Positions 5,482 to 63,961 are shown, numbered from the stretch's first letter. The stretch is 64,000 nucleotides of DNA from an uncultured Actinomycetes bacterium (GCA_963845355.1 CAWJRV010000005.1:6196-70195); one strand, 5' to 3'. Notes: generated by a model not told the origin, from the sequence alone. Numbers and translations: made by a program.

Positions 5482-6286
5482 TGCGAGCGCGCCTGACGTG
5501 AGCGGGGGTCCCGACTTGAGCGCGCCCGGCGTGAGCGCGCCCGACTTGAGCGCGCCCGGCGCGAGCGGGGGTTGCGACGCGAACGGTCTTGACCCGACCG
5601 GGACTCGCGAGGCGATCCTGCGGCGGGTCGGCGTGGCGCTGCGCGCCGCGCCGACCCCCGCGCCGGTCACGCGCGAGTACCGGCGCGGCGGGCTGGCCGA
5701 CGGCGCCGCGCTCCTCGACCTGCTGCGCGAGCGTCTCGTCGACTACAAGGCCGAGGTCCGCTGCATCGGCGCCGGCGAGGAGGGCCGCACGGTCGCCGAC
5801 GTCTGCCGTGAGCACCAGGTCCGCCGGCTGGGCGTGCCGCCCGGGCTGCCCGCCGGCTGGCGGCCGGCCGGCGTGGAGCTGGTCGAAGACGCCGGCCTCA
5901 CCGCTCGTGAGCTGGACGTACTCGACGGCGCCGTTACCGGCTGCACGCTGGCCATCGCCGAGACCGGCACTCTGGTGCTGACCGCCGGACCCGCCGAGGG
6001 ACGCCGGGCGCTGACCCTCGTGCCCGACCTGCACGTCTGCGTGGTCGACGCACGTCAGGTGGTGAGCGACCTGCCGTCGGCTCTGCCGGAGATCGCCGCG
6101 CTCGTGCGGACCGAACGCCGGCCGGTGACCTTCATCTCGGGGCCCTCGGCCACCTCCGACATAGAGCTCCACCGGGTCGAGGGCGTCCACGGGCCGCGCC
6201 GGCTCGTCGTGCTCATCGTGGCGCCGCCGGCGACATCCAATACGACGCTGCCGGCGACATCCGACACGACGCCGCCGAAAGCGTAG
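5465..6286 (+). CDS. lutC: L-lactate utilization protein C (LUD domain)
   Basis: AIAETGTLVL, GRRALTLVP and FISGPSATSDIELHRVEGVHGPR; exact start uncertain. Confidence 0.88.
5485..5580 (+). repeat. Six 15/18-bp tandem units (GAGCGCGCCCGACTT-like) in the lutC N-terminus
   Basis: Encodes SAPDV SGGPDL SAPGV SAPDL SAPGA SGGCD. Confidence 0.85.
6223..6277 (+). repeat. 24-bp tandem duplication in the lutC C-terminus
   Basis: Encodes PPATSNTT/LPATSDTT/PP. Confidence 0.8.
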
Positions 6287-6300
6287 CCCTCCCTGTATAC

Positions 6301-6378
6301 GTGTCCGCACGCCGCCGGACGTTGCCGGACGTTGCCGTACGCCTGCGAACGCTGCCGAACGTCCGGGCGCCGCCGAAC
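6301..6378 (+). repeat. Intergenic 10-bp-period direct repeats (consensus near GYYGCCGNAC)
   Basis: gtgtccgcac gccgccggac gttgccggac gttgccgtac gcctgcgaac gctgccgaac, plus gccgccgaac at 6369-6378. Confidence 0.75.
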
Positions 6379-6407
6379 GGCGCCCTTCCCGGAGCCGTTC
6401 CGGCGGC

Positions 6408-6416
6408 TGTTATACT
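6408..6416 (+). promoter_or_regulatory. Candidate extended -10 promoter (TGnTATACT) for the S53 protease gene
   Basis: TGTTATACT in a GC-rich intergenic region about 120 bp upstream of the ATG. Confidence 0.5.
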
Positions 6417-6535
6417 CGCTGCGATTCATCGTACGGGGTGCTTCGCCGGCCGCCTTAGGCCGCCGGCGCGGGCCGCCGCAAAGGGGGGAAACGATGAGCA
6501 GGGTCGTCGTCTCCACCAGTCGCCAAGGGGGTACC

Positions 6536-8464
6536 ATGCATCGTCACGTCCGATCTTTCTGTGTCGCGTTCGCCGTGGTCGTGGCGCTCGCGGCGGTGCT
6601 CGCGGCGAGCGCCACGGCGGCGCCGAGCGGCCGCGCCCAGCTTAGCGGGAGCGTGCCGGCGTGGGCGCTGCCCTCGGCGTTCAAGGCCGCGACCGACCCC
6701 GGCCAGCGCCTCAGCTTTCAGGTGTACCTCGGTTGGCGCGACGGCTCGGCTGCCAGAGCGCTGGCGCGTGCCGTCTCCAATCCGTCGAGCGCGCTCTACG
6801 GCCACTACCTGAGCCCGGCAAAGTTCCGCCGCCTGTTCGCGCCCCGCAAGGCCAGCGTCGCCGCGGTGCGGGCGTGGCTGGCGGGCCAGGGCTTCGCCGT
6901 CACGGGCGTGCCCGGCAACAACCTCTACGTGGCCGCCGCGGGCACCGTGGCGCAGGCCGAAAAGGCCCTCGGCGTCCGTCTGAATCAGTACACGACCGAC
7001 GGCCAGACGCTGCGCGCGCCGGCGTCGGCCCTGAGCATTCCGGCGTCGCTCGCCGGCATCGTGACCGCGGTCGTCGGTCTCGACCAAAGCAAGGCCCACC
7101 CGCAGGCGAGCGCCGACAACGCGCCCCCGCCGGCAGGGTTCCGCAACGCCCAGCCCTGGTCGATGTACTGGGGCCAGAACATCGCGACCGATCTGCCCAT
7201 GGGCTACGGCCACTACCTACCTTACGCACCGCGCGGCTACACGCCCAGCCAGCTTCGCGGGGCCTACGGTATCGACAAGGCGATCAGGTACGGCAACGAC
7301 GGGACCGGTGTCACGGTCGCCATCATCGACGCCTATGCCGCCCCGACCATCGTCTACGACGTCAATCGCTACTCGCACGACAACGGCGTGCCCGTCTTCA
7401 GGCCGGGACAGTTCAAGCAGATCCTCGACCCCGGTCTGGCCACTCAGCCGCCGCAGTCCGACGAATCGGACTGGTACGGCGAAGAGACGCTCGACATCGA
7501 GGCCGTGCACTCCATGGCGCCCGGCGCGAAGATCGTCTTCCTGGGCGCCCTGAACAGCCAGGACGACTCGCTCGACGTGATGATGAACTACGTCGTCGAC
7601 CATCGCGTGGCGCGCATCGTGAGCAACTCGTACGGTGAGTATGGCGAGCAGCTGCCGCCCGAACTGATCAAGGCGGAGAACTGCATCTACCTGCAAGCGG
7701 CCCTCGAAGGGATCGGCGTCTACTTCTCTTCAGGCGACAACGGCGACGAAGTCGACACGCTCGGCTATCGCTCGGTCGACTGGCCGGCGTCGAGCCCCTG
7801 GGTGACCGGGGTGGGCGGTACCAGCCTCGGTGTCGGCGCGCGCAACAACTACCTCTTCGAGACGGGCTGGGGCACGAGCCGCAGCGTGCTCGACAACGGC
7901 GTCTGGACGCCGGACCTGCCCGGCGACTGGTGGTACGGCGGCGGCGGCGGCACGAGCGTGCTGTACGCGCAGCCCTGGTATCAGCACAGGGTCGTCCCGG
8001 CCTCGATCGCCGACTATTTCGGCACCGGCAGCAAGTGGCGTACCGTGCCCGACGTGGCCATGGACGCCGACCCGACGACCGGCATGCTGGTGGGCGAGAC
8101 GCAGACGTTCCCTGACGGCGTCTACTACGACACCTATCGCATCGGCGGCACCAGCCTCTCGTGCCCGCTGTTCGCGGGCATGATGGCGCTCGCCGACCAG
8201 CGGGCGCGCTTCCCGCACGGGTTCCTGAACCCGGCGCTCTACCGGCTTGCCGGAACCGGCGCTTTCCGCGACATCGTCAACCCCAAGACGACGATCGCGG
8301 CCGTGCGTAGCGACTTCAGTGATGGCGTGGACGCCGCCGACGGCGTGGGCTTCTCGGTGCGCACCATGAACCAGACCGAGAGCCTCCAGACGCTCCCCGG
8401 CTACGACGACGTGACCGGCGTCGGCAGCCCGAACGGCGAGGCGTTCCTGAACGCCCTCAGGTAG
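6536..8464 (+). CDS. Secreted S53 (sedolisin/kumamolisin) serine protease with pro-domain
   Basis: Signal peptide, pro-domain (SALYGHYLSPAKFRRLF), EETLDIE (Glu/Asp), SSGDNG oxyanion Asp, GGTSLSCP catalytic Ser, GYDDVTGVGSP calcium site. Confidence 0.93.
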   Translation: MHRHVRSFCVAFAVVVALAAVLAASATAAPSGRAQLSGSVPAWALPSAFKAATDPGQRLSFQVYLGWRDGSAARALARAVSNPSSALYGHYLSPAKFRRLFAPRKASVAAVRAWLAGQGFAVTGVPGNNLYVAAAGTVAQAEKALGVRLNQYTTDGQTLRAPASALSIPASLAGIVTAVVGLDQSKAHPQASADNAPPPAGFRNAQPWSMYWGQNIATDLPMGYGHYLPYAPRGYTPSQLRGAYGIDKAIRYGNDGTGVTVAIIDAYAAPTIVYDVNRYSHDNGVPVFRPGQFKQILDPGLATQPPQSDESDWYGEETLDIEAVHSMAPGAKIVFLGALNSQDDSLDVMMNYVVDHRVARIVSNSYGEYGEQLPPELIKAENCIYLQAALEGIGVYFSSGDNGDEVDTLGYRSVDWPASSPWVTGVGGTSLGVGARNNYLFETGWGTSRSVLDNGVWTPDLPGDWWYGGGGGTSVLYAQPWYQHRVVPASIADYFGTGSKWRTVPDVAMDADPTTGMLVGETQTFPDGVYYDTYRIGGTSLSCPLFAGMMALADQRARFPHGFLNPALYRLAGTGAFRDIVNPKTTIAAVRSDFSDGVDAADGVGFSVRTMNQTESLQTLPGYDDVTGVGSPNGEAFLNALR

Positions 8465-52655: not shown

Positions 52656-53297
52656 TTGAGGACACCGCGGGCCCGTCGAGCGGCCCTGGGCCTCGGGGGA
52701 GACGTTCCCGGGCTCATCGCGATCCTCGACCGGCAGCTCGGCGAGACCATCGCCGCCTGCCGGCTGGCGCGCCGGGTGGCGGAGGGCGAGCTCGACCCGG
52801 GCAGGGCTCACGAGCAGATCGCCGCGATCGAGCATCGCGGCGACCTTCTCAGAGGCGAGCTCGTGACCAGGCTTGCCGGTGTGCCGGAGTCTCCCATCGA
52901 CCGCGAAGACCTCTTCAGGCTGTCGCGTTCGATCGACGACGTGCTCGACAATCTGCGCGACTTCGTGCGCGAGTGGGACCTGTACAAGATCGAGCCCGCC
53001 GAAGGCTACGTCGACCTCCTCGACTCGACCGAATGCGGGGTCTCCGACCTGAAGCTGGCGGTCAAGACGATCGCGCGCGACCCCAAAGAGACGGGTCAGG
53101 CCGCACTCCTTTCCAAGAAATCGGCGAACGAGATCCGCCGCCTGTATGACGTCGAGCTGGGCAGGCTGTTCAGCGGCGAGCTCAGCATGGATGTCCTCAA
53201 GTGCCGCGAGCTGCTGCGGCGGCTCGATGTGGTCGGCCTGCGGTTGAACGAGGCTGCCGACGTGCTCGCGGACGCCGCCGTCAAGCATCGGACCTGA
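52656..53297 (+). CDS. DUF47 (PhoU-like / Pit accessory) protein
   Basis: IEHRGDLLR and SPIDREDLFRLSRSIDDVLD; all-helical; start uncertain. Confidence 0.85.
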   Translation: MRTPRARRAALGLGGDVPGLIAILDRQLGETIAACRLARRVAEGELDPGRAHEQIAAIEHRGDLLRGELVTRLAGVPESPIDREDLFRLSRSIDDVLDNLRDFVREWDLYKIEPAEGYVDLLDSTECGVSDLKLAVKTIARDPKETGQAALLSKKSANEIRRLYDVELGRLFSGELSMDVLKCRELLRRLDVVGLRLNEAADVLADAAVKHRT

Positions 53298-53538: not shown

Positions 53539-54747
53539 ATGAGTGAAGACAGGCTTCCAGGCAAAGACTCCGAGAAATCCGGCCTCACCCGGCGGCAGTT
53601 CGTCGAGCGTGGCGCGATCGGCGCTGTCGGGCTGGCCAGCCTCGGCGCCGTCCCCGCGCTGCTGAGCGCCTGCGGGAGCTCGTCATCAGGCGGCAGCTCG
53701 TCTCCCACGCCGACTGCGCTGGCGACGGCTCTGCCCAGTGGTGGCCTCTCCGCCCTCGAGACGGCCGCCAAGGCCGAGGGCCAGCTCAACGTCATCGCCC
53801 TGCCGCCCAACTGGGCCAACTACGGCAAGATCATCAGCACCTTCCAGAGCAAGTACGGCATCACCGTCAACAGCGCCAACCCCAACGGCACATCCGCCCA
53901 GGAGAACCAGGCGCTCGTCACCCTCAAGGGCCAGTCGCGCGCGCCCGACGTGGTCGACGTCGGTCCGTCGTTTGCCGCCCAGGGCATGAGCCAGGGCCTC
54001 TACGCTCCCTACTTCGTGGCCACGTGGGCTACGATCCCCGACTCCATGAAGGACCCCGCCGGCCACTGGTACGGCGACTACTACGGCGTGATCTCGTTCG
54101 GCACCAACGGGAACGTTCAGAAGACCCCGCCCAAGGACTGGCCCGACCTGCTCCACTCGATCTACCACGGCCAAGTGGCCATCGACGGCGACCCGCGCTC
54201 GGCCAACGACGCCTTCTCGGCGGTCTACGCCGCGGCTCTGGCCAACGGCGGCTCGCTCGACGACATCACGCCCGGCATCGACTTCTTCGCCAAGCTCAAG
54301 AAGGCCGGAAACTACATCCCTGCCGACGCCCTGCCGGCCAACATCTCCAAGGGCTCGACACCGATCGCCATCATCTGGGACTACCTGAACCTGGCCAACA
54401 AGCAGCAGTTCGCCGGCAATCCGCCCTACACGGTGTCGATCCCCAAGAGCGGCGTCTACGGCGGCTTCTACTGCCAGGCGATCAGCGCCACGGCACCGCA
54501 CCCGAACGCCGCCCGCCTCTGGCAGGAGTTCATCTACTCAGACGAGGGCCAGCTCCTCTATCTCGAGGGCTTCACGCACCCGGCGCGTTTCGCCGACATG
54601 GCCAAGCGCAACGTCATCCCGGCCTCGGTGATGGCGGCCATGCCGCCGGCGGCCTCCTACGCGAACATCCAGTTCGCCTCTCAGGACCAGATCGCGGCCG
54701 CGACCAAGGTCGTCACCGACCAGTGGGGAACGAAGGTCGCGGGCTAG
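53539..54747 (+). CDS. ABC transporter substrate-binding lipoprotein (PotD/AfuA/Fbp-like, Tat signal)
   Basis: LTRRQFVE twin-arginine motif, lipobox LSAC, NVIALPPNWANYG, PDVVDVG and APHPNAARLW; AGGAGG Shine-Dalgarno. Confidence 0.9.
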   Translation: MSEDRLPGKDSEKSGLTRRQFVERGAIGAVGLASLGAVPALLSACGSSSSGGSSSPTPTALATALPSGGLSALETAAKAEGQLNVIALPPNWANYGKIISTFQSKYGITVNSANPNGTSAQENQALVTLKGQSRAPDVVDVGPSFAAQGMSQGLYAPYFVATWATIPDSMKDPAGHWYGDYYGVISFGTNGNVQKTPPKDWPDLLHSIYHGQVAIDGDPRSANDAFSAVYAAALANGGSLDDITPGIDFFAKLKKAGNYIPADALPANISKGSTPIAIIWDYLNLANKQQFAGNPPYTVSIPKSGVYGGFYCQAISATAPHPNAARLWQEFIYSDEGQLLYLEGFTHPARFADMAKRNVIPASVMAAMPPAASYANIQFASQDQIAAATKVVTDQWGTKVAG

Positions 54748-54800
54748 GGCCGACAACACCGGCGCGTGCGCGATTACTACGACCCGCGGGCTGCGTGTGT

Positions 54801-55778
54801 ATGACGAGCGGCGACGTGCCACAGGATAGGGACGCGGTCTCGAGCGACACGCTCGAGACCGCGTCCCCCCTCGAAGCCCGCGCCCCGGTACTGACGCCCG
54901 AACCGTCGGCCAGGCGACGGCGGGCGCGAATAAGCCGGCGCGGGCTGCTCACGTGGGCGGGTGTCGTGCCGTTCTTCGCCTACGCGGCCTTCTTCCTGCT
55001 GATCCCCGTGGTCGTGCTGGTGTTCAAGACGTTCACGAGCGAAGGCGGAGGGTTCACGCTCGAAAACGTGAAGGCCCTTGCCTCGGGCCAGTACAGGGTC
55101 GCGTTCGTCGCCAGCATCGAAGTCAGCGTGATCAGCGCCATCGGCGGCGGCCTGTTCGGCCTGTTTGTCGCCTACGCGGCCGTCCACGGCCGCGGACCGC
55201 GCTTCATCCAGCCGCTGCTCACCACGTTCTGCGGGGTGGCGTCGAACTTCGCCGGCATCCCGCTGGCCTTCGCCTTCATCGCCACGCTCGGTCCGACGGG
55301 TGTGGTGACCGTGCTGCTCGCCGACCTCGGCCTGCACATCTATCCGCACTTCACGATCTTCAGCCTGATCGGTCTTTCGCTCGTCTACATATACTTCCAG
55401 CTCCCGCTCATGATCCTGGTCATCGCCCCCTCGCTCGAGGGGCTGCGCGTCGAGTGGCGCGAAGCCGCCGACAACCTCGGCGCCACGCAGTCGCAGTACT
55501 GGTGGCACGTGGGTCTGCCGGTGCTGCTGCCCAGCCTCGCCGGCGCCATGGTCCTGCTGTTCGGCAACGCCTTCAGCGCCTACGCCACGCCGTACGCCCT
55601 GGCGAGCGGCGGCATCACCCTGGTGCCGATCCTCATCGGCTCGGTCCTGTCGGGCAACGTGGTGATCACCAACCCGCGGCTCGGCGACTCGCTGGCCTTC
55701 GGCATGATCGTCATCGTCGGCATCACCATCCTCGCCTACGTGCTCCTGCAGCGGAGGGCGGCGAAGTGGCTCCAATAG
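54801..55778 (+). CDS. ABC transporter permease (PotB-like)
   Basis: Six TMs and EAA loop EWREAADNLGA. Confidence 0.9.
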   Translation: MTSGDVPQDRDAVSSDTLETASPLEARAPVLTPEPSARRRRARISRRGLLTWAGVVPFFAYAAFFLLIPVVVLVFKTFTSEGGGFTLENVKALASGQYRVAFVASIEVSVISAIGGGLFGLFVAYAAVHGRGPRFIQPLLTTFCGVASNFAGIPLAFAFIATLGPTGVVTVLLADLGLHIYPHFTIFSLIGLSLVYIYFQLPLMILVIAPSLEGLRVEWREAADNLGATQSQYWWHVGLPVLLPSLAGAMVLLFGNAFSAYATPYALASGGITLVPILIGSVLSGNVVITNPRLGDSLAFGMIVIVGITILAYVLLQRRAAKWLQ

Positions 55779-56635
55779 AGGGTTCGATAGCACCGACGAT
55801 GGCCGGCCAGGAGGTCACCCGGCATCCGCAGCGCAAGAAGGCTCGCAAGCGCCGCGTGTCGTTCTGGACCTGGTTCTGGCTCATCATGGCGGCCCTGTAT
55901 TTCCTGGTGCCGCTCTACTCGACCCTGCAGTTCAGCCTCGAGACCGGCCAGCACAGTTACGGCTTCAAGTGGTACTCGCAGATCTTCGCCGACCCCGCGT
56001 TCCGCACGAGCTTTCTCTTCTCACTGCGTCTGGCGATCGAGACCGTCATCATCGGACTTGTCCTCATGGTGCCCACGGTTTACTGGGTGCACCTGCGTCT
56101 GCCCCAGTTGCGGCCGGTCATGGACGTGGTCTCGATCCTGCCGTTCGTCGTGCCGCCGGTCGCGCTGGTGGTGGGTCTCTCGGGCGTCTTCAACGTCCTG
56201 CCCTGGTTGCTCAGCAACTCGCAGATCCTGGCCTTCATCTACGTGATCCTGGCCCTGCCGTTCACCTACCGCTCACTCGACGCCGGCATGCGGGCGATCA
56301 ACGTGAAGACGCTGACCGAGGCGGCGCAGAGCGTCGGCGCGCCGGGCTGGAAGACCCTCGTGTTCGTGATCCTGCCCAACATCCGCACGGCCATGCTCTC
56401 CGGTGCGTTTCTGACGCTGGCGATCGTCATGGGCGAGTACACGATCTCGAGCCTGTTGCTGTTCAACACCTTCGCGGTCTATATCTATTATATTGGTAAT
56501 ACAGAGGCACAACCGGCCGCCGCCCTGGCCATCATCAGCTTCACCCTCACCTGGGGGGCGATGATGGGACTCTTCTTGCTGTCCCGGCGGCGTGGCCGGG
56601 CGAGCAGTCCAGGCGTGACGGCGGTCAGCCGGTGA
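55766..56635 (+). CDS. ABC transporter permease (PotC-like)
   Basis: Six TMs and EAA loop LTEAAQSVGA; GTG after GGAGGG (alternative ATG at 55799). Confidence 0.9.
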   Translation: MAPIEGSIAPTMAGQEVTRHPQRKKARKRRVSFWTWFWLIMAALYFLVPLYSTLQFSLETGQHSYGFKWYSQIFADPAFRTSFLFSLRLAIETVIIGLVLMVPTVYWVHLRLPQLRPVMDVVSILPFVVPPVALVVGLSGVFNVLPWLLSNSQILAFIYVILALPFTYRSLDAGMRAINVKTLTEAAQSVGAPGWKTLVFVILPNIRTAMLSGAFLTLAIVMGEYTISSLLLFNTFAVYIYYIGNTEAQPAAALAIISFTLTWGAMMGLFLLSRRRGRASSPGVTAVSR

Positions 56636-56647
56636 GGAGCGAGAAGC

Positions 56648-57715
56648 ATGGCGAGGCTTGATCTGCGAGGCATCCGCAAGGAGTTCGGCGAGACGACCGC
56701 GCTGGCTGAACTCTCGCTCGAGGTCGAGTCGGGTGAGCTCGTCTCGTTGCTCGGGCCCAGCGGCTGCGGCAAGACCACGGCGCTGCGCATCGTCGCCGGG
56801 TTCGAACAGCCGACTCGCGGCGAGCTGCTCGTCGACGGCAGCGACGTCACCCCGGTGCCGGCCAGCAAGCGCAACATGGGGATGGTGTTCCAGGCCTACA
56901 GCCTGTTCCCGAACATGACCGCCCGCCAGAACGTCGAGTTCGGGCTGCGCATGCGCAAGGTCGCACGCGACAAATGCCGCGCTCGGGCCGGAGAGCTGCT
57001 CGAGCTTGTCGGCCTGGCGGCGCGCGCCGACAACTACCCGCACGAACTCTCGGGCGGTCAACAGCAGCGCGTGGCGCTGGCGCGGGCCCTGGCCATCGAG
57101 CCTGCCATCCTGCTGCTCGACGAGCCGCTGTCGGCGCTCGACGCGAAGGTGCGCGTCGACTTGCGCCAGCAGATCAGGCGCGTCCAGCAGCGGCTGGGCA
57201 TCACTACGCTCTATGTCACCCACGACCAGGAAGAGGCGCTGTCGATCTCCGACCGCATCGCCGTCATGTCCGAGGGCGTCCTCGAGCAGGTCGGCGCGCC
57301 GGCCGAGATCTACCGCAGCCCGCGCTCCGAGTTCGTCGCCAACTTCGTCGGCCTGATGAACGGCTTCGACGGCCGGGTACAGGCGCCGAACCTGGTCGTG
57401 GTCGGCGCCTCCGAGCGTCCGATCGGCGTGGTCGAGGGACACGGCTGCGCCGCAGGCGACCGGGTGCTGGTGCTGATCCGTCCCGAGTCTGTCGGTCTCG
57501 AGGAGATCGCCGACGGCGCGGCCCCGCCCGACGGAGTGCTCGAGGGCAAGGTCGTGATGCACACCTTCCTGGGCTCGGTCACCCGCGTGAACCTGACCTC
57601 CGACCTCGGCGATCTCGTGGCCGACGTTCCCAGTCTGCGGGCGCTGACCCTGCCGCCCGGCACGCGCGTTGGGGTGCGCGTCGATCCGGTCGGCGTGCGA
57701 CTGCTCGCGCGCTGA
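56648..57715 (+). CDS. ABC transporter ATP-binding protein (PotA-like, TOBE domain)
   Basis: GPSGCGKTT, LSGGQQQRVALARAL, LLDEPLSALD and VTHDQEEA. Confidence 0.93.
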   Translation: MARLDLRGIRKEFGETTALAELSLEVESGELVSLLGPSGCGKTTALRIVAGFEQPTRGELLVDGSDVTPVPASKRNMGMVFQAYSLFPNMTARQNVEFGLRMRKVARDKCRARAGELLELVGLAARADNYPHELSGGQQQRVALARALAIEPAILLLDEPLSALDAKVRVDLRQQIRRVQQRLGITTLYVTHDQEEALSISDRIAVMSEGVLEQVGAPAEIYRSPRSEFVANFVGLMNGFDGRVQAPNLVVVGASERPIGVVEGHGCAAGDRVLVLIRPESVGLEEIADGAAPPDGVLEGKVVMHTFLGSVTRVNLTSDLGDLVADVPSLRALTLPPGTRVGVRVDPVGVRLLAR

Positions 57716-57754
57716 CCCGCAGGCTGCTCATGCGCTGATCCGCAGGCTGCCCGC
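57709..57754 (+). repeat. 23-bp tandem duplication including the stop codon of the ABC ATPase gene
   Basis: GCGCTGACCCGCAGGCTGCTCAT / GCGCTGATCCGCAGGCTGCCCGC. Confidence 0.75.
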
Positions 57755-57847
57755 GCACACATCCGTTGCGGACTCGGGCATCGGTCGCGGCAGGCCGCGT
57801 CTCGCGCCGGCGCCGGTGCGGCGACGGCCTCGCGGAGCTCGCCGCGG

Positions 57848-57876
57848 TTGAAACATCAGACGTCTGATGTTATCGT
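57848..57876 (+). promoter_or_regulatory. Sigma70 promoter with a perfect 20-bp palindromic operator filling the spacer
   Basis: TTGAAA (57848-57853), 17-bp spacer, TATCGT (57871-57876); palindrome AACATCAGACGTCTGATGTT at 57852-57871. Confidence 0.85.
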
Positions 57877-57954
57877 CAGTCGTCGTCACGAGACGGCGAC
57901 GAGGCGCGCCGTCGAGCCCCGACCCCGTCGACTTTCGCGGAGGTACTTCCGTCC

Positions 57955-59376
57955 ATGACCGACCTGTTCGACCTCGGCGCGCTGCGGCGCCGACTCGCAG
58001 AGGCGCCCGAGGCCGCGAGGCTCGAGCCACTGGGCTTGCAGACGGTCGTTCTCGGAGACGACGCCCTGGCGGCCCTGCCCCGCATCGTCGCCCAGCTTGC
58101 CGCCTCGCGCGGACGCCCGGGCCCCGTCGCCATCCTTTCCGGCCCGACCCCGAAGCTCTATCGCGCGACCGATCTGCTGGGCTTCGTCACCGAGACCCTC
58201 GCGGCACGGTCCGCCGTGCGCAGCGTCACGCTCGGGACGTCGGGCCGTCCCGTGCACGCCGACGAGGAGACCCTGGCCAGGGCCACCCGCGACTGCGAGG
58301 GCGCCGGCTGTCTTGTGGCGGTCGGCTCAGGGACCGTTACCGACATCGGCAAGGTCGTCGCGGCGGCGCACGGTATGGGCTACGTCGTCGTGCAGACCGC
58401 CAACAGCGTCAACGGCTTCGCCGACGATCGCTCCGTGCTGCTGGTCAACGGCGTGAAGCGCACCACGCCGACGACATGGGCCGACGCCCTGGTGATCGAC
58501 ACCGACGTCCTCGTCGCGGCCCCCGTCGAGATGAACGTTTCCGGCTTCGCCGACCTGATCGCCACCTTCACGGCGCCGGCCGACTGGTATCTGGCCACCC
58601 TGCTCGACATGGACGACACGTATTCGCCGACGGTCGTCGCGCTGGCTCGCGAGCAGGGACCGGCGCTGCTCGCGGCCGCGCCCCGCGTGCTGGGCGCCGA
58701 CCGCGCGGCGCTGGCCCAGGTCGCCGCGACCCTCACGCTGAGCGGCATCTCGATGGGTGTCGCCGGCACCACGGCCCCCTGCTCGGGCATGGAGCACACC
58801 GTCGCCCATCTGCTCGAGATGGCGACCATGCGAAGCCGGCCGCGAGGCGGCTCTGCACGGCGCCCAGGTGGGTGCCAGCAGCGTCGATCGCCGCGCTGCT
58901 CTGGCGGCGTGTCCTGGACGAGCTGGCCGACGGCGGGCTCTCGCGCGTCCGGGTGCCCGACGCGACCGAAGCCGAGGCCGGCGTGCGGGCAGCCTTCCTG
59001 CACGTCGATCCCAGCGGCGCCATGGGTGAGGAATGCTGGCGCGATTACGCGCGCAAGCTCGCGCGCTGGGCCGCCGCCGGCGAGCGCGTCGCGGCGGTGG
59101 CGCGCGACTGGGCGACCCACGACCGTATCCTGCGCGACCTGCTCGCCGGGCCCGAGGCGCTCGTGACGGCCTTGCGCGCCGCCGCCGCCCCGGTGCTGTT
59201 CTCCGAGGTGACGCCTCCGGCCGACGAGGCCACCGCGCGCTGGGCGGTCGCGAGCTGCCATCTGATGCGCGACCGCTTCTCGGTGGCCGACATGGCCTGC
59301 TTTCTGGGGATCTGGGACGCCGCCTGCGTCGACGAGCTCCTGTCGCGATGCCGCCGCCCTCGGGGGCGCCGTATGA
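57955..59376 (+). pseudogene. sn-glycerol-1-phosphate dehydrogenase (AraM/EgsA family) with three 1-bp insertions (real or assembly errors)
   Basis: AVGSGTVTDIGK, QTANSVNGFA, SGFADL, APADW and PCSGMEHTVAHLLEM, then LHGAQVG in a second frame and MRDRFSVAD in a third; shifts near 58833, 58885 and 59346. Confidence 0.8.
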
Positions 59377-60197
59377 CCAGCCGGCCCACGCGGATCTATC
59401 CCGGGTATGCCTTCGACCTGGACGGCACGGTGTACCTGGGCGACGCCCTGCTGCCCGGCGCGGCCGAGACGATCACCACCATCCGGCGTGCCGGCTCGCG
59501 CGTCGTGTTTGTGACCAACAAGCCGCTCCAGACCGCCGACGACTATGCACGCAAGCTGACCCGCCTCGGCATAGCCACGGCGCGCGCCGACGTGGTGACG
59601 TCGGTCGACGCGCTGGTCGACTACCTCGGCCGTGAGCATCCCGGCGAGACCGTCCTTGCGGTAGCCGAGCAGTCGACCATCGACGAGATCCGCGGGGCCG
59701 GCTTCGCGGTGACCAGAGACCCGCGCCGCACGCAGGTCGTGGTCGTCTCCTTCGACCGCACCTTCGACTACGAGAAGCTGAACGCCGCCTTCCGGGCGGT
59801 GTACTACCACGGCGCCACCATCGTCGCCACCAACCCCGATCCGTACTGTCCGACGCCCGAGGGCGGGTTGCCCGATTGCGCGGCCATGCTGGCGGCCATC
59901 GAAGCCTGCACGGGAGCCAGGGCCGAGGCGGTGGTCGGCAAGCCGAGCATCCACATGGCGCGCGCCCTGCTGGGTCGGCTCGGTCTGCCCGCCCGCGACG
60001 TCGTCCTCACCGGCGACCGTCTGCTCACCGACGTCGCCATGGCCCTGTCGCTCGGCATGACCGGCGTCCTCACGCTGACGGGGGCGACCCCCGCCGGCAG
60101 CGTCGCCGGCTCCGCGGTCGCGCCCGATTTCGTGATCGACGGGCTCGCCCAGCTTCTGCCCGAAGGCTCTGCCGCCCACCAGGAGGTCCCGCGGTGA
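59373..60197 (+). CDS. HAD-IIA phosphatase (NagD/AraL-like)
   Basis: FDLDGTVY, FVTN, ATNPDPYCP, VVGKPS and GDRLLTDV. Confidence 0.9.
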   Translation: MTSRPTRIYPGYAFDLDGTVYLGDALLPGAAETITTIRRAGSRVVFVTNKPLQTADDYARKLTRLGIATARADVVTSVDALVDYLGREHPGETVLAVAEQSTIDEIRGAGFAVTRDPRRTQVVVVSFDRTFDYEKLNAAFRAVYYHGATIVATNPDPYCPTPEGGLPDCAAMLAAIEACTGARAEAVVGKPSIHMARALLGRLGLPARDVVLTGDRLLTDVAMALSLGMTGVLTLTGATPAGSVAGSAVAPDFVIDGLAQLLPEGSAAHQEVPR

Positions 60198-60880
60198 ACT
60201 TCATCTTCATGCTGACCCACAACGACAGCACCGTCCCGGCTGCCGCCAGGGTCTACGAGAGCCTGCGCGGTACCGCGCTCCACTACGTCGGTTTCAAGGA
60301 CATCGGGGCGACTCCCGACGAGCTTGCCGTCGTAGCCGAGAAAGCCCACGCCGATGGCCTCGAGGTCATGCTCGAGGTCGTGTCGACCTCGCGCGAGTCG
60401 GAGATCGCGTCGCTGCAAGCGGGGCGCGACATCGGCGTCGACTGGATCCTGGGCGGCACGCACGCCGGCGAGGGCGTGCGTATCATGGCGGGCAGCGGCA
60501 TCAAGTACTGCCCGTTCCCGGGTCGCATCGACGGTCACCCCAGCGTCCTGCTGGGCAGCATCGCCGAGATCAGCCAGGGCGCCCGCGACCTGTCGGCCCT
60601 GGACGGCGTCTACGGTCTCGATCTGCTCGCGTATCGCAGTCCCGGGGAGGACCCCATCGCCCTGACCCGCGACGTCGTGGTCGCCTCGCCCGGGCCGGTG
60701 ATCGTAGCCGGCTCGATCGCAACACCTGAGCAGATCCGTCTCGTCGCCGGAGCGGGGGCGTGGGGGTTCACGATCGGTGGCGCGATCTTCGAGGGGCGTC
60801 TGCCCGGCGCGCCCGACCTGGCCGGCCAGATCAGTGAGGTCCTGAACATCACGGCGGCCGCCACGGCGGTTCGCGACTAG
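60194..60880 (+). CDS. Uncharacterised ribulose-phosphate-binding-type TIM-barrel protein
   Basis: Alternating beta/alpha pattern; VGFKDIG, LEVVS, VIVAGSI and GFTIGGAIF (phosphate-binding end); GTGA overlap and AGGAGG Shine-Dalgarno. Confidence 0.72.
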   Translation: MNFIFMLTHNDSTVPAAARVYESLRGTALHYVGFKDIGATPDELAVVAEKAHADGLEVMLEVVSTSRESEIASLQAGRDIGVDWILGGTHAGEGVRIMAGSGIKYCPFPGRIDGHPSVLLGSIAEISQGARDLSALDGVYGLDLLAYRSPGEDPIALTRDVVVASPGPVIVAGSIATPEQIRLVAGAGAWGFTIGGAIFEGRLPGAPDLAGQISEVLNITAAATAVRD

Positions 60881-60889
60881 GGCCGGGGC

Positions 60890-61639
60890 ATGGACAGGAA
60901 GCCTCGCGCGAAGCTGCCCGACCGAGTGCGCGACGCGCTGCTCGGCGACCTGTTCTCGGGCGTCTATATCGCCGGCGACCGGCTCCCCAACGAAGACGAG
61001 CTGGCCGCTCGCTTCGAGGTCAGCAGAGCGACCATCCGCGAAGCCGTACGTGGGCTCGTCGAGGCCGGGTATCTGGTGCGCCGTCATGGCACCGGTACCT
61101 TCGTGACGGCGCTGCCGCGCCACCGTCACACACTGAACCGCAACCTGAGCTACATGGCCATGATCCGCGAAGCCGGGCTCGAACCGGGACGCAGGCTGAT
61201 CCGCCACCTGGTCCGCGTGGCGACGAGCGACGAGGCGGCCGCGCTTTCGATCGCTCCCACGGACTCCGTGCTCTTCGTCGAGCGGATCCGCACCGCCGAC
61301 GGCCGGCCGGTCGTGTACTCGACCGACCGCATCTCCACGGCCTTGCTCGGCGACGCCGTCGAGCGTGTCGCCGATTCGTCGTCGCTGTACGTGTTGCTCG
61401 AGCAGGCCCACGCCGAGGTGCGCAGCGCGCTTGCGACCCTGCATCCCGTGGTCGCCGACGCGCGCCTGGCGCGCCTGCTCGACGTTCAGGTCGGCGCTCC
61501 CCTGCAGCAGATCGAACAGGTGGACTTCGACGAGCTCGGACGACCCGTGATGCTCTCTTCGGAGTGGCATGTACCCGACGTCTTCGAGCTTGCCGTGAAC
61601 CGCGTGAGTGACGCGCCGGCCGGTCGTGCCGGTGCCTGA
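60890..61639 (+). CDS. GntR-family regulator with UTRA domain (HutC type)
   Basis: GDRLPNEDELAARFEVSRATIREAV...GTGTFV and ERIRTADGRPV. Confidence 0.93.
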   Translation: MDRKPRAKLPDRVRDALLGDLFSGVYIAGDRLPNEDELAARFEVSRATIREAVRGLVEAGYLVRRHGTGTFVTALPRHRHTLNRNLSYMAMIREAGLEPGRRLIRHLVRVATSDEAAALSIAPTDSVLFVERIRTADGRPVVYSTDRISTALLGDAVERVADSSSLYVLLEQAHAEVRSALATLHPVVADARLARLLDVQVGAPLQQIEQVDFDELGRPVMLSSEWHVPDVFELAVNRVSDAPAGRAGA

Positions 61640-61677
61640 ATCGCCGCGACAGATGCGGCGTAGGACACGGAGGTCGC

Positions 61678-63399
61678 ATGGTGGTCGCTGACGCGCGCGT
61701 GACGTGGCTTGGTCCCGATGCTCGCCGGCGCGCTCTGGAGCGTTTCGCCGCCGAGACCTTCGACGTACTGGTCGTCGGCGGCGGCGTGACGGGCTGCGGG
61801 GTCGCGCTCGATGCCGCGAGTCGCGGCCTGTCGGTGGCCCTGGTGGAACGCCGCGACTTTGCCGCCGGCACGTCGAGCCGTTCCAGCAAGCTGATCCACG
61901 GTGGGCTGCGGTATCTCGAGCATCTCGACGTCGATCTCGTGCGCGAGGCGCTGCACGAACGGCGGCTGCTGATCGAGAAGATCGCTCCGCACCTGGTCCA
62001 TCCCACGCCCTTCCTGTTCCCGCTCAGGCGCAAGGTCTGGGATCGTCTGTATATGGGCGCGGGACTCCTGCTGTACGACTCGCTGGCCGGCCTGCACCCG
62101 GCGGTGCCGCGTCACCGGCACCTGTCGCGGCGCGCCTGCCTGAAGGCGGCCCCGGGGCTGCGCGGCGACGTGCTCGCCGGCGGCATCCGCTACTACGACG
62201 CGCAGGTCGACGACGCGCGCTTCGCGCTGGTGCTGGCGCGTACGGCGGCTTCGCTGGGCGCGGTCTGCGCGTCGGCGGTGGCGGTGAGCGAGTTCCTGCA
62301 CGACGGCGACAGGGTGGCCGGCGCACGCCTGCACGACCTCGAGGGCGGCGGCGAGCTCGACGTGCATGCTCGCACGGTGATCAACGCCACGGGCATCTGG
62401 ACCACCGAGATGGAGCGCCTGGCCGGCATCGCCGACCCCATGATCGTGCGGCCGTCCAAGGGAGTGCACATCGTCGTGGCTCGCGACAGGATCAAGTCGG
62501 ACTACGCGCTCATCCTGCCTACCGAGAAGAGTGTGCTGTTCGTGCTGCCCTGGGGCCGGCAGTGGATCATAGGCACCACCGACACCGACTGGCACTACGA
62601 CCTGGACCACCCGGCGGCCACGCACGCCGACATCCAGTACCTGCTCGAACACGCCAACAAGGTGCTTGCCGAGCCCCTCCGCTTCGAAGACGTCATCGCC
62701 GTGTACGTCGGCCTGCGACCGCTGCTCGGCGGCACGGCGGAGGAGACGGCGAAGCTGTCACGCCATCATGCCGTGCGGCGCAGCGCGCCGGGGTTCGTGA
62801 GCGTGGCGGGCGGCAAGTACACCACCTACCGGCTGATGGCGCGCGACGCGGTCGACAAGGCCGCAGCCGACCTGCCGTTCGCAAGCGACGCCAGCCGCAC
62901 CGCCGACATTCCGGTGCTGGGAGCCGTCGGCCGGGCGGGCGCGGGGTTCAGGCTGAGCCGGCACGCCGGGGCCGCCACCCTGTCGGCGGGCCAGCTCGAC
63001 CACCTGGTCGCGCGCTACGGCACGCTGGCCGAGGAGGTGCTCGACCTGCTCGTCGCCGACCCTGCTCTGGCGGCCCCGCTTGCCGGCGCCGAAAGCTACC
63101 TGGCCGGCGAGGTGCGCTACGCCGCGATGTGCGAAGGCGCGCTGCATCTGGACGACGTGCTCACCCGCCGCACGCACATCGCCTTCGAGGCGCCCGACCG
63201 CGGCCGGCTGGCCGCCGGGGGCGCCGCGCGCCTGATGGCGCCCGTGCTCGGCTGGGACGAGGCCGCGGTCGATCGCGAGATCGCCCACTACGTGGCGCGA
63301 CTCGAGGCCGAGTCGGCAGCGCAAGCGCTGCTCTCCGACGTCGCGTCCGATGCGGCTCGGGCCGGGGTGCGCGACCTGCGGCTCGAGAAGCCCGAGTAG
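61678..63399 (+). CDS. glpD: FAD-dependent glycerol-3-phosphate dehydrogenase/oxidase
   Basis: GGGVTG, GTSSRSSKLIHGGLRYL, DAQVDDARF, NATGIW, SKGVHIV, IGTTDT, GLRPL and GGKYTTYR. Confidence 0.92.
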   Translation: MVVADARVTWLGPDARRRALERFAAETFDVLVVGGGVTGCGVALDAASRGLSVALVERRDFAAGTSSRSSKLIHGGLRYLEHLDVDLVREALHERRLLIEKIAPHLVHPTPFLFPLRRKVWDRLYMGAGLLLYDSLAGLHPAVPRHRHLSRRACLKAAPGLRGDVLAGGIRYYDAQVDDARFALVLARTAASLGAVCASAVAVSEFLHDGDRVAGARLHDLEGGGELDVHARTVINATGIWTTEMERLAGIADPMIVRPSKGVHIVVARDRIKSDYALILPTEKSVLFVLPWGRQWIIGTTDTDWHYDLDHPAATHADIQYLLEHANKVLAEPLRFEDVIAVYVGLRPLLGGTAEETAKLSRHHAVRRSAPGFVSVAGGKYTTYRLMARDAVDKAAADLPFASDASRTADIPVLGAVGRAGAGFRLSRHAGAATLSAGQLDHLVARYGTLAEEVLDLLVADPALAAPLAGAESYLAGEVRYAAMCEGALHLDDVLTRRTHIAFEAPDRGRLAAGGAARLMAPVLGWDEAAVDREIAHYVARLEAESAAQALLSDVASDAARAGVRDLRLEKPE

Positions 63400-63409
63400 G
63401 CGGGGCTCG

Positions 63410-63961
63410 AGCAAGCGGAGTCCTGGTCGGCTGTTCGACGCCGCCCGCCTGCTGCGCCGGTTCCACGACGCGACGATCGGATTCGAGCCGCCGCCGGGTG
63501 TGGACTGGCAGGTGGTCTGCCCTCCCGATCTGCCGGTCGAGGTGATCTGTCACAACGACTTCGCCCCCTACAATGCCGTCTTTCGGGAGGGGCGTCTGTG
63601 CGGCATCATCGACTTCGAAACCATCTCGCCGGGCGCACGTGTCTGGGACGTCGCCCACGCGGCGTATCGCTTCGTGCCCCTCTCGCTACAGGCGCGCCGG
63701 CCGGGCTGCGACTCACCGGCGGAGCAGGCGCGCCGCCTGCGGCTCTTCTGCGCTGCCTACGGTCTGGGCCGCGCCGATCGAGCCGCGCTCGTCGGCGTCG
63801 TGGTGCGGCGCGTGGCGGCGCTTCGCGACCTCGTGGTGTGCCTGGCCGCGGAGGGTGACGCCGCCGGCCTCAGACGTATGGCCGATGGCGACGCGGACGA
63901 GTATGCGGACGACGTCGCCTACGTGCTCGCTGAGCAGCTCTTGTTCGGGAGCGCTCTGTAG
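63410..63961 (+). pseudogene. APH/choline-kinase-like phosphotransferase, C-terminal lobe only
   Basis: AARLLRRFHDA, ICHNDFAPYN and IIDFE; no N-lobe and no convincing start between the glpD stop and these motifs; left boundary approximate. Confidence 0.65.

Follow-up and report, generated by a model that had tools for sequence, protein, structure and literature searches.

In the erythritol pathway of Brucella the FGGY-type kinase EryA and the GlpD-like dehydrogenase EryB are followed by isomerases, and both G1PDH-type enzymes (sn-glycerol-1-phosphate dehydrogenases, acting on sn-glycerol 1-phosphate, G1P) and PdxA-type enzymes oxidize the hydroxyl that neighbours a terminal phosphate ester. 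Glycerol-phosphate phosphatases are found among the HAD-IIA enzymes. Pathways with a DUF1537 kinase and PdxA2 lead from D-threonate or D-erythronate to dihydroxyacetone phosphate (DHAP) and CO2, and from 4-hydroxythreonine to 4-phosphohydroxythreonine (4PHT), as cited in the relevant parts of PMC9997740 and PMC7954711; the part of PMC7954711 also cites the action of PdxA on 4PHT, which yields 3-amino-2-oxopropyl phosphate. Here we describe an operon in a 64,000-nucleotide stretch of DNA (the window, meaning the whole stretch analysed) that lies on a 182,758-base contig of an actinobacterial metagenome-assembled genome (57% complete, 2.16 Mb, 53 contigs, ~70% G+C). At positions 53539–63399 all genes are on the + strand and, by Pfam, NCBIfam and open reading frame (ORF) calls, form two units, a four-gene ABC importer followed by a GntR-controlled five-gene operon encoding a G1PDH-like dehydrogenase, a HAD-IIA phosphatase, a phosphate-binding (beta-alpha)8 barrel, the GntR/UTRA regulator and a GlpD-like dehydrogenase. 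The operon represents, in this genome, a module that is conserved across Actinomycetota and Chloroflexota, an uncharacterised variant of the kinase–dehydrogenase catabolic routes with a new enzyme family in it. Scanning species genomes with the barrel gave 568 confirmed loci, and the counts below are for the best 80 of these.

The module resembles the DUF1537/PdxA2 pathways in the predicted succession of a kinase and a metal/NAD dehydrogenase whose target is the hydroxyl beside a terminal phosphate, and members of the barrel family lie behind, or are fused to, PdxA-type genes in Proteobacteria; it differs in that the window has no kinase, the dehydrogenase is a non-homologous G1PDH-like protein, and the barrel does not appear in those parts of the published accounts. 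With the Brucella pathway it would share a kinase and a GlpD-like dehydrogenase acting on a polyol phosphate, followed by a keto-phosphate rearrangement, but we saw no homologues of EryC, EryH or EryI, and the module has a second, NAD-dependent dehydrogenase and a HAD phosphatase. The adjacent HAD-IIA and Fe-ADH_2/G1PDH-type genes recall araL–araM of Bacillus subtilis, although the order in the window is dehydrogenase, phosphatase, barrel, there are no arabinose genes, the G1PDH model fails, and PcrB was not found in the 57%-complete genome. The GlpD-like gene, the GlpK-like kinases and GDPD genes of some relatives (24/80 and 4/80 loci respectively) and the probable organophosphate specificity of the importer are features of the GlpK/GlpD regulon and of Ugp/GlpQ uptake; however, the GlpD-like and GlpK-like proteins both fall below their cut-offs, the regulator is GntR/UTRA rather than GlpR, and three further conserved enzymes have no place in that regulon. 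Finally, halophilic archaea's non-carboxylating pentose bisphosphate pathway also joins a HAD phosphatase with a 'G1PDH'-annotated paralogue of other function (from the portion of PMC9700705 consulted), but the HAD and dehydrogenase proteins of the window are far under the corresponding NCBIfam cut-offs (33 bits against 330, and 19 against 550), and R15P isomerase and FucA-type aldolase are absent. A literature search found no description of the module or of the barrel, although the primary papers on DUF1537 pathways may mention the barrel as a neighbour.

Conservation and regulation of the module

Partner genes were scored by tblastn with the window proteins, requiring at least 40% identity for the GlpD-like gene and at least 45% for an orthologous GntR gene. 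The G1PDH-like and HAD-IIA genes are each present in 76 of the 80 loci (two of the four loci without the former end within 1 kb upstream of the barrel), and the exact order dehydrogenase–HAD–barrel, found in 62, is not a matter of chance. The GlpD-like gene accompanies them in 53 loci and the orthologous GntR gene in 39, and the linkage to which an earlier note on this DNA had attached its proposal is thus conserved among barrel homologues. All of the genes listed in that note are present where it placed them, and the absence from the window of a sugar or glycerol kinase and of a GGGP/PcrB synthase, on which it had remarked, extends for the FGGY kinase to the whole contig and for PcrB to the incomplete source genome.

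Relatives carry several genes that the window lacks. A XylB-like FGGY kinase gene is directly upstream in 64/80 loci (337 bits against the XylB cut-off of 380), an APC-family permease gene is present in 50/80, and a GlpK-like kinase gene is located between the barrel and GlpD-like genes in those 24 loci noted above. Because the FGGY kinase and APC permease are found in most relatives, the usual substrate would appear to enter unphosphorylated and may bear an amine. Of the 16 loci with no upstream FGGY kinase, seven are truncated, and the other nine include the nearest relatives of the window (L003 and L004) together with L005, L008 and L010; in these last three a hemL-like class-III aminotransferase gene (about 6150–7700) occupies the place of the kinase, directly upstream of the G1PDH-like gene. 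The window clade lacks both of the genes that head the operon elsewhere. Less frequent neighbours are class-III aminotransferases (23/80) and APH kinases (6/80).

RMM-type microcompartment genes are found in 16/80 loci, all Streptosporangiales-type. In Streptosporangiales-type loci (L013, L016, L020, L024, L026–L028, L030, L032–L036, L042, L055, L058, L063 and L065) the module is inside an RMM-type locus in which a tandem-BMC shell protein, an acylating aldehyde dehydrogenase and a class-III aminotransferase are all divergently encoded, and in some of them a 470-residue protein of unknown kind and an APH kinase follow the GlpD-like gene in the same direction. We considered and rejected an RMM-type (amino-alcohol) microcompartment role, as the shell genes are restricted to these 16 loci and the window has no BMC shell, acylating aldehyde dehydrogenase or class-III aminotransferase genes beside the module.

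A perfect 20-bp palindrome just upstream of the dehydrogenase gene, unique in the window and with no occurrence expected by chance, is likely to be the GntR operator of the operon. Its 14-bp core, ATCAGACGTCTGAT, recurs in 27 of 81 sources when up to two mismatches are allowed, usually no more than 200 nt upstream of a gene for the dehydrogenase, the FGGY kinase or the APC permease; we estimate ~0.1 chance matches per locus, so that a few of these may be fortuitous. The location of the core before the permease and kinase genes of relatives suggests that the GntR regulon takes in both.

Neither of the dehydrogenases reaches the family to which it is closest. The earlier note had named the first an AraM/EgsA-type G1PDH, an assignment that was overstated: against the family cut-off of 413 bits (EgsA/AraM, NF002022) the N-terminal frame in the window scores 117.9, its intact L004 orthologue (89–91% identical) 127.4, and the L013 protein 111. 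The Fe-ADH_2/DHQS-like fold domain is nonetheless present (PF13685, 76.8 bits against a cut-off of 28), and the solved relatives are 9h4x (a 414-residue G1PDH of bacterial length; E 3.7e-28), 3ce9, 5fb3 and 4rgq. At the S-x-D-G position all 58 full-length members of the clade have Asn; the aligned residue in five solved chains of G1PDH or glycerol dehydrogenase is Asp, which in G1PDH we take to be a metal ligand. The MEH, AH and LHG motifs keep their His residues, and proteins of the window type are ~100 residues longer than archaeal G1PDHs. A halophile paralogue annotated as 'G1PDH' is a glycolaldehyde reductase with no G1P activity, according to the portion of PMC9700705 consulted, and the family name therefore does not fix the substrate. 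The GlpD-like enzyme has the DAO and DAO_C architecture and is short of the NF008899 cut-off of 360 bits both in the window (327.3) and in L013 (315.6), and the GlpK-like kinase of relatives is likewise under its equivalog cut-off. The phosphatase passes the HAD-IIA subfamily model TIGR01460 and reaches neither of the equivalogs (NagD-type PRK10444, 106.5 against 368 bits; PGP_euk, 132 against 202).

The G1PDH-like gene has three extra single bases in the window, near 58835, 58885 and 59345, as judged from reading frames and from DNA alignment to relatives; the first two are seen against 4/4 relatives and the third against 2/2. Contigs of short reads from four public runs differ from the window by ~2 letters in 300 and lack the bases at 58835 and 58885 in 4/4 runs and that at 59345 in the only run spanning the site; stretches of 58500–59500 with no contig cover carry no meaning. 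Every sequencing run that matched contained <0.4 of the sampled words, and we draw nothing from them on habitat. Both halves of the gene are in one frame in 67 of the 72 related loci where both are visible. Neither relatives nor the near-identical public contigs have the extra bases, so that the frameshifts are either consensus errors or private to this population; the gene is not dead in general, and probably not dead here. The mention of a frame-repaired protein in the earlier note matches the three insertions, and the case that it gave as a refutation, a gene dead in all relatives, did not arise. Other breaks were seen in an FGGY gene elsewhere in the source genome (G000:C35:4473–5981), which has two in-frame stops, and in the second permease gene of L004 (L004:5490–6354), where a frameshift divides it; these assemblies seem prone to indel errors.

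The barrel family and its proteobacterial relatives

The AlphaFold model of the barrel protein is a (beta-alpha)8 barrel of high confidence (pLDDT 94.2, pTM 0.91). A single search of a large protein collection gave 4134 sequence clusters of relatives at E <= 0.001, and the family spans Actinomycetota, Chloroflexota and Proteobacteria, with a patchy distribution (11 of 400 other sampled Actinomycetota genomes). The window protein has no Pfam or NCBIfam match at E 0.01, and none of the known phosphate-binding barrel families (His_biosynth, NanE, RPE, OMPdecase/HPS, KDPG aldolase and PdxJ) is matched at its family cut-off; sub-threshold matches to His_biosynth (17/18 members) and NanE (13/18) are confined to the C-terminal phosphate loops. 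Sequence and profile searches of solved structures returned nothing significant for the barrel, and a PDB profile search nothing below 0.003. Structural comparison with VIA-align placed it closest to HPS-PHI (9lj9, Z 20.9), KDPGal aldolase (18.9), RPE (18.2) and KGPDC (17.5), with many families including PdxJ at Z 17–19, and Foldseek reported only generic barrels (TM 0.6–0.7). The invariant residues are T7, D10, K34, D35, E60, S116, D142 and R147, together with the standard phosphate-binding loops.

Homologues with 45–50% identity and the same invariant residues are present on 23 proteobacterial plasmid records. At all six annotated plasmid loci the barrel gene directly follows a PdxA-family gene, which in five is itself preceded by a DUF1537 'four-carbon acid sugar kinase' gene under a divergent LysR regulator. 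We also note PdxA–barrel fusion proteins (80 and 30 member sequences) with PdxA at the N-terminus and a barrel portion sharing 46% identity with that of the window. The PdxA proteins beside the barrel pass the general PdxA model and fail that for D-threonate-4-phosphate dehydrogenase (PdxA2), and the DUF1537 kinases are under the DtnK and OtnK cut-offs. Downstream of the barrel, two of the six loci encode a low-specificity L-threonine aldolase (Aminobacter) or a DSD1/BhcC-like aldolase and RidA (Rhizobium), and single-member fusions join the barrel to two further families of pyridoxal phosphate (PLP) enzymes. This association with PdxA and DUF1537 points to C4 or amino compounds rather than to glycerol phosphate alone.

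Some free-standing barrels that are not PdxA (L087–L093 and P0125–P0127) are publicly named '4-hydroxythreonine-4-phosphate dehydrogenase', a misnomer that has probably spread from the PdxA–barrel fusions. A cupin is fused or adjacent to the barrel in three of the six proteobacterial loci; orthology of the rhizobial barrel-fused cupin with an actinobacterial one was considered and set aside (22–23% identity over 40–54 residues). A 36%-identical barrel on a Rhizobium plasmid (L094) is ~3 kb from genes for a D-threitol dehydrogenase and DhaK/L, but as a fragment of an IS-type (insertion sequence) transposase gene and a broken ABC ATPase gene lie in between, we count the threitol link as incidental. 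In a low-GC actinobacterial genome, another 36%-identical barrel is encoded in a different cluster (L148:139–12980) with an ABC importer, two FGGY kinases, a sulfatase, DeoR, two class-II aldolases and a PfkB kinase, which looks like a route for a sulfated or unusual sugar; low-GC actinobacterial barrels were left out of the functional inference.

A predicted route for a small phosphorylated compound

Direct observation covers the gene content of the module, its conservation, the common operator, and the placing of the barrel beside PdxA-type dehydrogenases and its fusion to them. We infer the substrate and every chemical step of the following scheme, which we favour with modest confidence: a probable organophosphate importer lies beside, and may supply, a conserved GntR/UTRA-repressed operon that handles a small phosphorylated C3–C4 compound, the barrel acting on a 1-phospho-2-keto intermediate. 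A C3–C4 compound ending in CH2OH–CHOH would be phosphorylated at its end, in relatives by the XylB-like FGGY kinase after uptake by the APC permease; the window lineage may instead take up the finished phosphate ester. Oxidation would then fall on the CHOH adjoining the CH2-O-phosphate, one configuration being handled by the G1PDH-like enzyme and the other by the GlpD-like enzyme, and from this 1-phospho-2-keto product the barrel would make a central triose phosphate, with the HAD phosphatase providing a side or safety step. The barrel accompanies two non-homologous kinase and dehydrogenase pairs (FGGY and G1PDH-like in Gram-positives, DUF1537 and PdxA in Proteobacteria) with the same type of oxidation, and action on the 1-phospho-2-keto product is the simplest reading of this. 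As to the substrate class, a C4 compound or an amino compound fits better, of the kind of 4-hydroxythreonine, tetritols or tetronates; the amine-related neighbours (APC permeases, class-III aminotransferases, threonine-aldolase-type enzymes, RidA and the PLP fusions) suggest an amino compound such as 4-hydroxythreonine.

Several points weigh against this scheme. It gives the HAD phosphatase no explained role; the GlpD-like gene is absent within 10 kb in 27/80 loci; the fold matches do not decide among isomerase, aldolase and decarboxylase; and the low-GC barrel clade, at 36% identity and in a different sugar-type context with class-II aldolases, raises the possibility that the family has no single function. 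All enzyme substrates and activities are moreover predictions from sequence. The importer adds two more, since it adjoins the operon so rarely (see below) and no operator is present upstream of it, either in the window within three mismatches or in L004.

A first rival account of the locus is that proposed earlier, in which glycerol phosphates or glycerophosphodiesters (for example from archaeal lipids, lipoteichoic acid or the head groups of phosphatidylglycerol) are imported and converted to DHAP, G1P by the G1PDH-like enzyme and sn-glycerol 3-phosphate (G3P) by GlpD, with the barrel and phosphatase as accessories. In its favour are the G1PDH identity of the solved proteins closest to the dehydrogenase, the score of the GlpD-like protein near its cut-off, the GlpK-like kinase genes, GDPD genes beside the module and beside importer homologues (2/14), and the glycerol-phosphate phosphatases among HAD-IIA enzymes. 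But DHAP needs no further enzyme, and plain G1P/G3P scavenging leaves unaccounted for the barrel, the most conserved gene and one tied to PdxA and DUF1537 in Proteobacteria. The dehydrogenase scores (111–127 bits), the Asn in its S-x-D-G motif and the precedent of the halophile paralogue (PMC9700705, as far as consulted) all argue against it, and most operons are headed by an APC permease and a XylB-like, not a GlpK-like, kinase; we therefore regard this account as rather unlikely. We keep from the earlier proposal the possibilities that the substrate is a small phosphorylated compound of polyol type and that the two dehydrogenases are stereo-complementary; what it misses is the barrel and the kinase and permease of relatives.

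C4/C5 polyol phosphates were also named in the earlier note, and the FGGY and GlpD-like pairing mirrors EryA and EryB of Brucella. A route for C4 polyols or acid sugars (of the erythritol, threitol, threonate or erythronate type) could employ this pair together with the G1PDH-like enzyme for the other stereoisomer, the barrel being a tetrulose-phosphate isomerase or epimerase, a 3-oxo-tetronate-4-phosphate decarboxylase or a formaldehyde-releasing aldolase. Linkage of the barrel to 'four-carbon acid sugar kinase' and PdxA-family genes and its closest folds (HPS-PHI, KDPGal aldolase, RPE and KGPDC) agree with this, but the known DUF1537/PdxA2 routes reach DHAP with no extra enzyme (as cited in the parts of PMC9997740 and PMC7954711 noted above), the sole threitol-cluster neighbour is separated from the barrel by the IS fragment, and the APC permeases and five kinds of PLP enzyme adjoining or fused to the barrel point to an amine, so that we think it improbable in this specific form. 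An equally speculative version of our own, to which we also attach a low probability, is that the barrel is a new enzyme disposing of 3-amino-2-oxopropyl phosphate, the reactive product of PdxA-type oxidation of 4PHT, by reverse-Amadori isomerisation and hydrolysis to glyceraldehyde 3-phosphate and ammonium. The module would then serve to break down or detoxify amino-polyols resembling 4-hydroxythreonine or aminopropanediol, with opposite enantiomers of a phosphorylated amino-alcohol going to the G1PDH-like and the GlpD-like enzyme and the ABC system here importing the phosphate ester directly. The PdxA–barrel fusions, the threonine-aldolase-type genes (2/6), the APC permeases (50/80), the class-III aminotransferases (23/80) and a distant likeness of the family to HisA-type Amadori enzymes are the grounds for this version, and a deaminating isomerase could suit a HisA-like barrel.

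The importer has the architecture of the PotABCD/PhnSTUV/AfuABC type, with a substrate-binding protein, two permeases and a TOBE-tailed ATPase. The binding protein reaches no curated model of known ligand (PhnS models give 46–50 bits against cut-offs of 310–395, and PotD no match at E 0.001), and its best solved relative is an uncharacterised binding protein (5t1p_A, E 2.2e-48), for whose code, 5T1P, a literature search found nothing; weaker PDB matches are to the PLP-binding P5PA (6wce, E 1.5e-5) and an Fe(3+) binding protein, and AfuA is not among the solved-structure matches. Importer homologues are present in 28 of 400 other Actinomycetota genomes, and in 19 of 20 fetched Actinomycetota loci the four-gene unit is whole (L140 has the binding protein alone). 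In six of 14 loci scanned these homologues adjoin a HAD_2 phosphatase, GDPD or metallophosphoesterase gene, which fits organophosphate uptake, and this is probably what the importer does, judging from its gene neighbourhoods. A PhoU_div/DUF47 gene is directly upstream of the binding-protein gene both in the window (52656–53297, +) and in L004 (L004:2383–3027); such genes usually accompany phosphate transporters, a hint that the importer may be phosphate-related.

Whether the importer serves the operon at all is a separate matter. It could instead be an iron, polyamine or other transporter brought in by a lineage-specific insertion, with the operon substrate entering otherwise, and this is a serious, though not a likely, alternative. 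It would account for how seldom the importer adjoins the operon (in the window, in L004 and, more loosely, in a single Chloroflexota locus, but at none of the 20 other importer loci), and for the same flanks being found in L003, the closest relative with no importer; the missing operator, the 239-nt gap with its own promoter-like site between the ATPase and dehydrogenase genes, and the Fe(3+) binding protein match also favour it. On the other hand, the loss of the FGGY kinase and APC permease from the window clade calls for another route of entry, the phosphoesterases adjoin importer homologues, and in the Chloroflexota locus (L068) a related binding protein and GDPD adjoin the module. A functional tie is thus plausible, from the adjacency in the window and L004, the looser Chloroflexota case and the lack of the usual permease and kinase in the clade, but the importer is not a regular partner of the operon. 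The idea in the earlier note that an already phosphorylated polyol is imported gains from the phosphoesterases and loses from the relatives, which have their own FGGY kinase and APC permease.

Under the scheme that we favour, the attachment of one barrel to two non-homologous kinase and dehydrogenase pairs of the same chemistry is the signature of a missing step in an undescribed pathway for C3–C4 phospho-compounds in soil bacteria. The family is large, has no Pfam or NCBIfam model and is misnamed in public annotation, and solving its function would correct thousands of G1PDH, GlpD, PdxA and HisA/F annotations. An answer might further show how 4-hydroxythreonine-type antimetabolites, or unusual polyol phosphates originating in cell walls and lipids, are removed by bacteria; with its conserved operator and with carriers that can be cultured (Streptomyces, Kribbella, Arthrobacter, Acrocarpospora and rhizobia), the module is open to direct testing.

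Gene inventory and a downstream kinase-like fragment

Table 1. Features of the importer and operon region, with coordinates in the window and bit scores of the models matched.
Feature	Coordinates	Strand	Evidence
Substrate-binding lipoprotein of ABC importer	53539..54747	+	SBP_bac_6 69.6 bits, SBP_bac_8 56.1 bits; Tat motif TRRQFV, lipobox LLSAC
ABC permease 1	54795..55778	+	BPD_transp_1; PotB/CysT/PhnU-like, under cut-offs
ABC permease 2	55799..56635	+	BPD_transp_1; ModB/PhnV-like, under cut-offs
ABC ATPase, TOBE_2 tail	56648..57715	+	ABC_tran 127.4 bits, TOBE_2 33.2 bits; PhnT2 403.9 vs cut-off 457.7, PotA 347.5 vs 482
Promoter-like site with perfect 20-bp palindrome (57851–57870), likely GntR operator	57848..57876	+	Promoter scan and sequence
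G1PDH-like (Fe-ADH_2) dehydrogenase, read through three one-base insertions	57955..59376	+	Fe-ADH_2 76.8 bits; NF002022 117.9 vs cut-off 413
HAD-IIA phosphatase, start overlaps dehydrogenase stop	59373..60197	+	Hydrolase_6, Hydrolase_like; TIGR01460 124.9 vs cut-off 100.15
Phosphate-binding (beta-alpha)8 barrel, 228 residues, signature gene of the module	60194..60880	+	No Pfam/NCBIfam match; AlphaFold model pLDDT 94.2
GntR/UTRA (HutC-type) regulator	60890..61639	+	UTRA 100.8 bits, GntR 66.9 bits; PhnF-like 114.6 vs cut-off 156.8
GlpD-like FAD dehydrogenase	61678..63399	+	DAO 200.7 bits, DAO_C 99.1 bits; NF008899 327.3 vs cut-off 360

Overlapping the end of the GlpD-like gene is a 203-residue ORF (63350–63961, +) that matches an APH-family kinase over the catalytic loop alone (HND...N...IDFE; Pfam APH positions 160–214 of 239) and has no counterpart at the same place in L004. 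A relationship to the APH kinase of the Streptosporangiales-type loci was considered and rejected, there being no likeness between them, and with a Rhizobium APH protein the fragment has the catalytic motif alone in common. The ORF is probably a kinase remnant.

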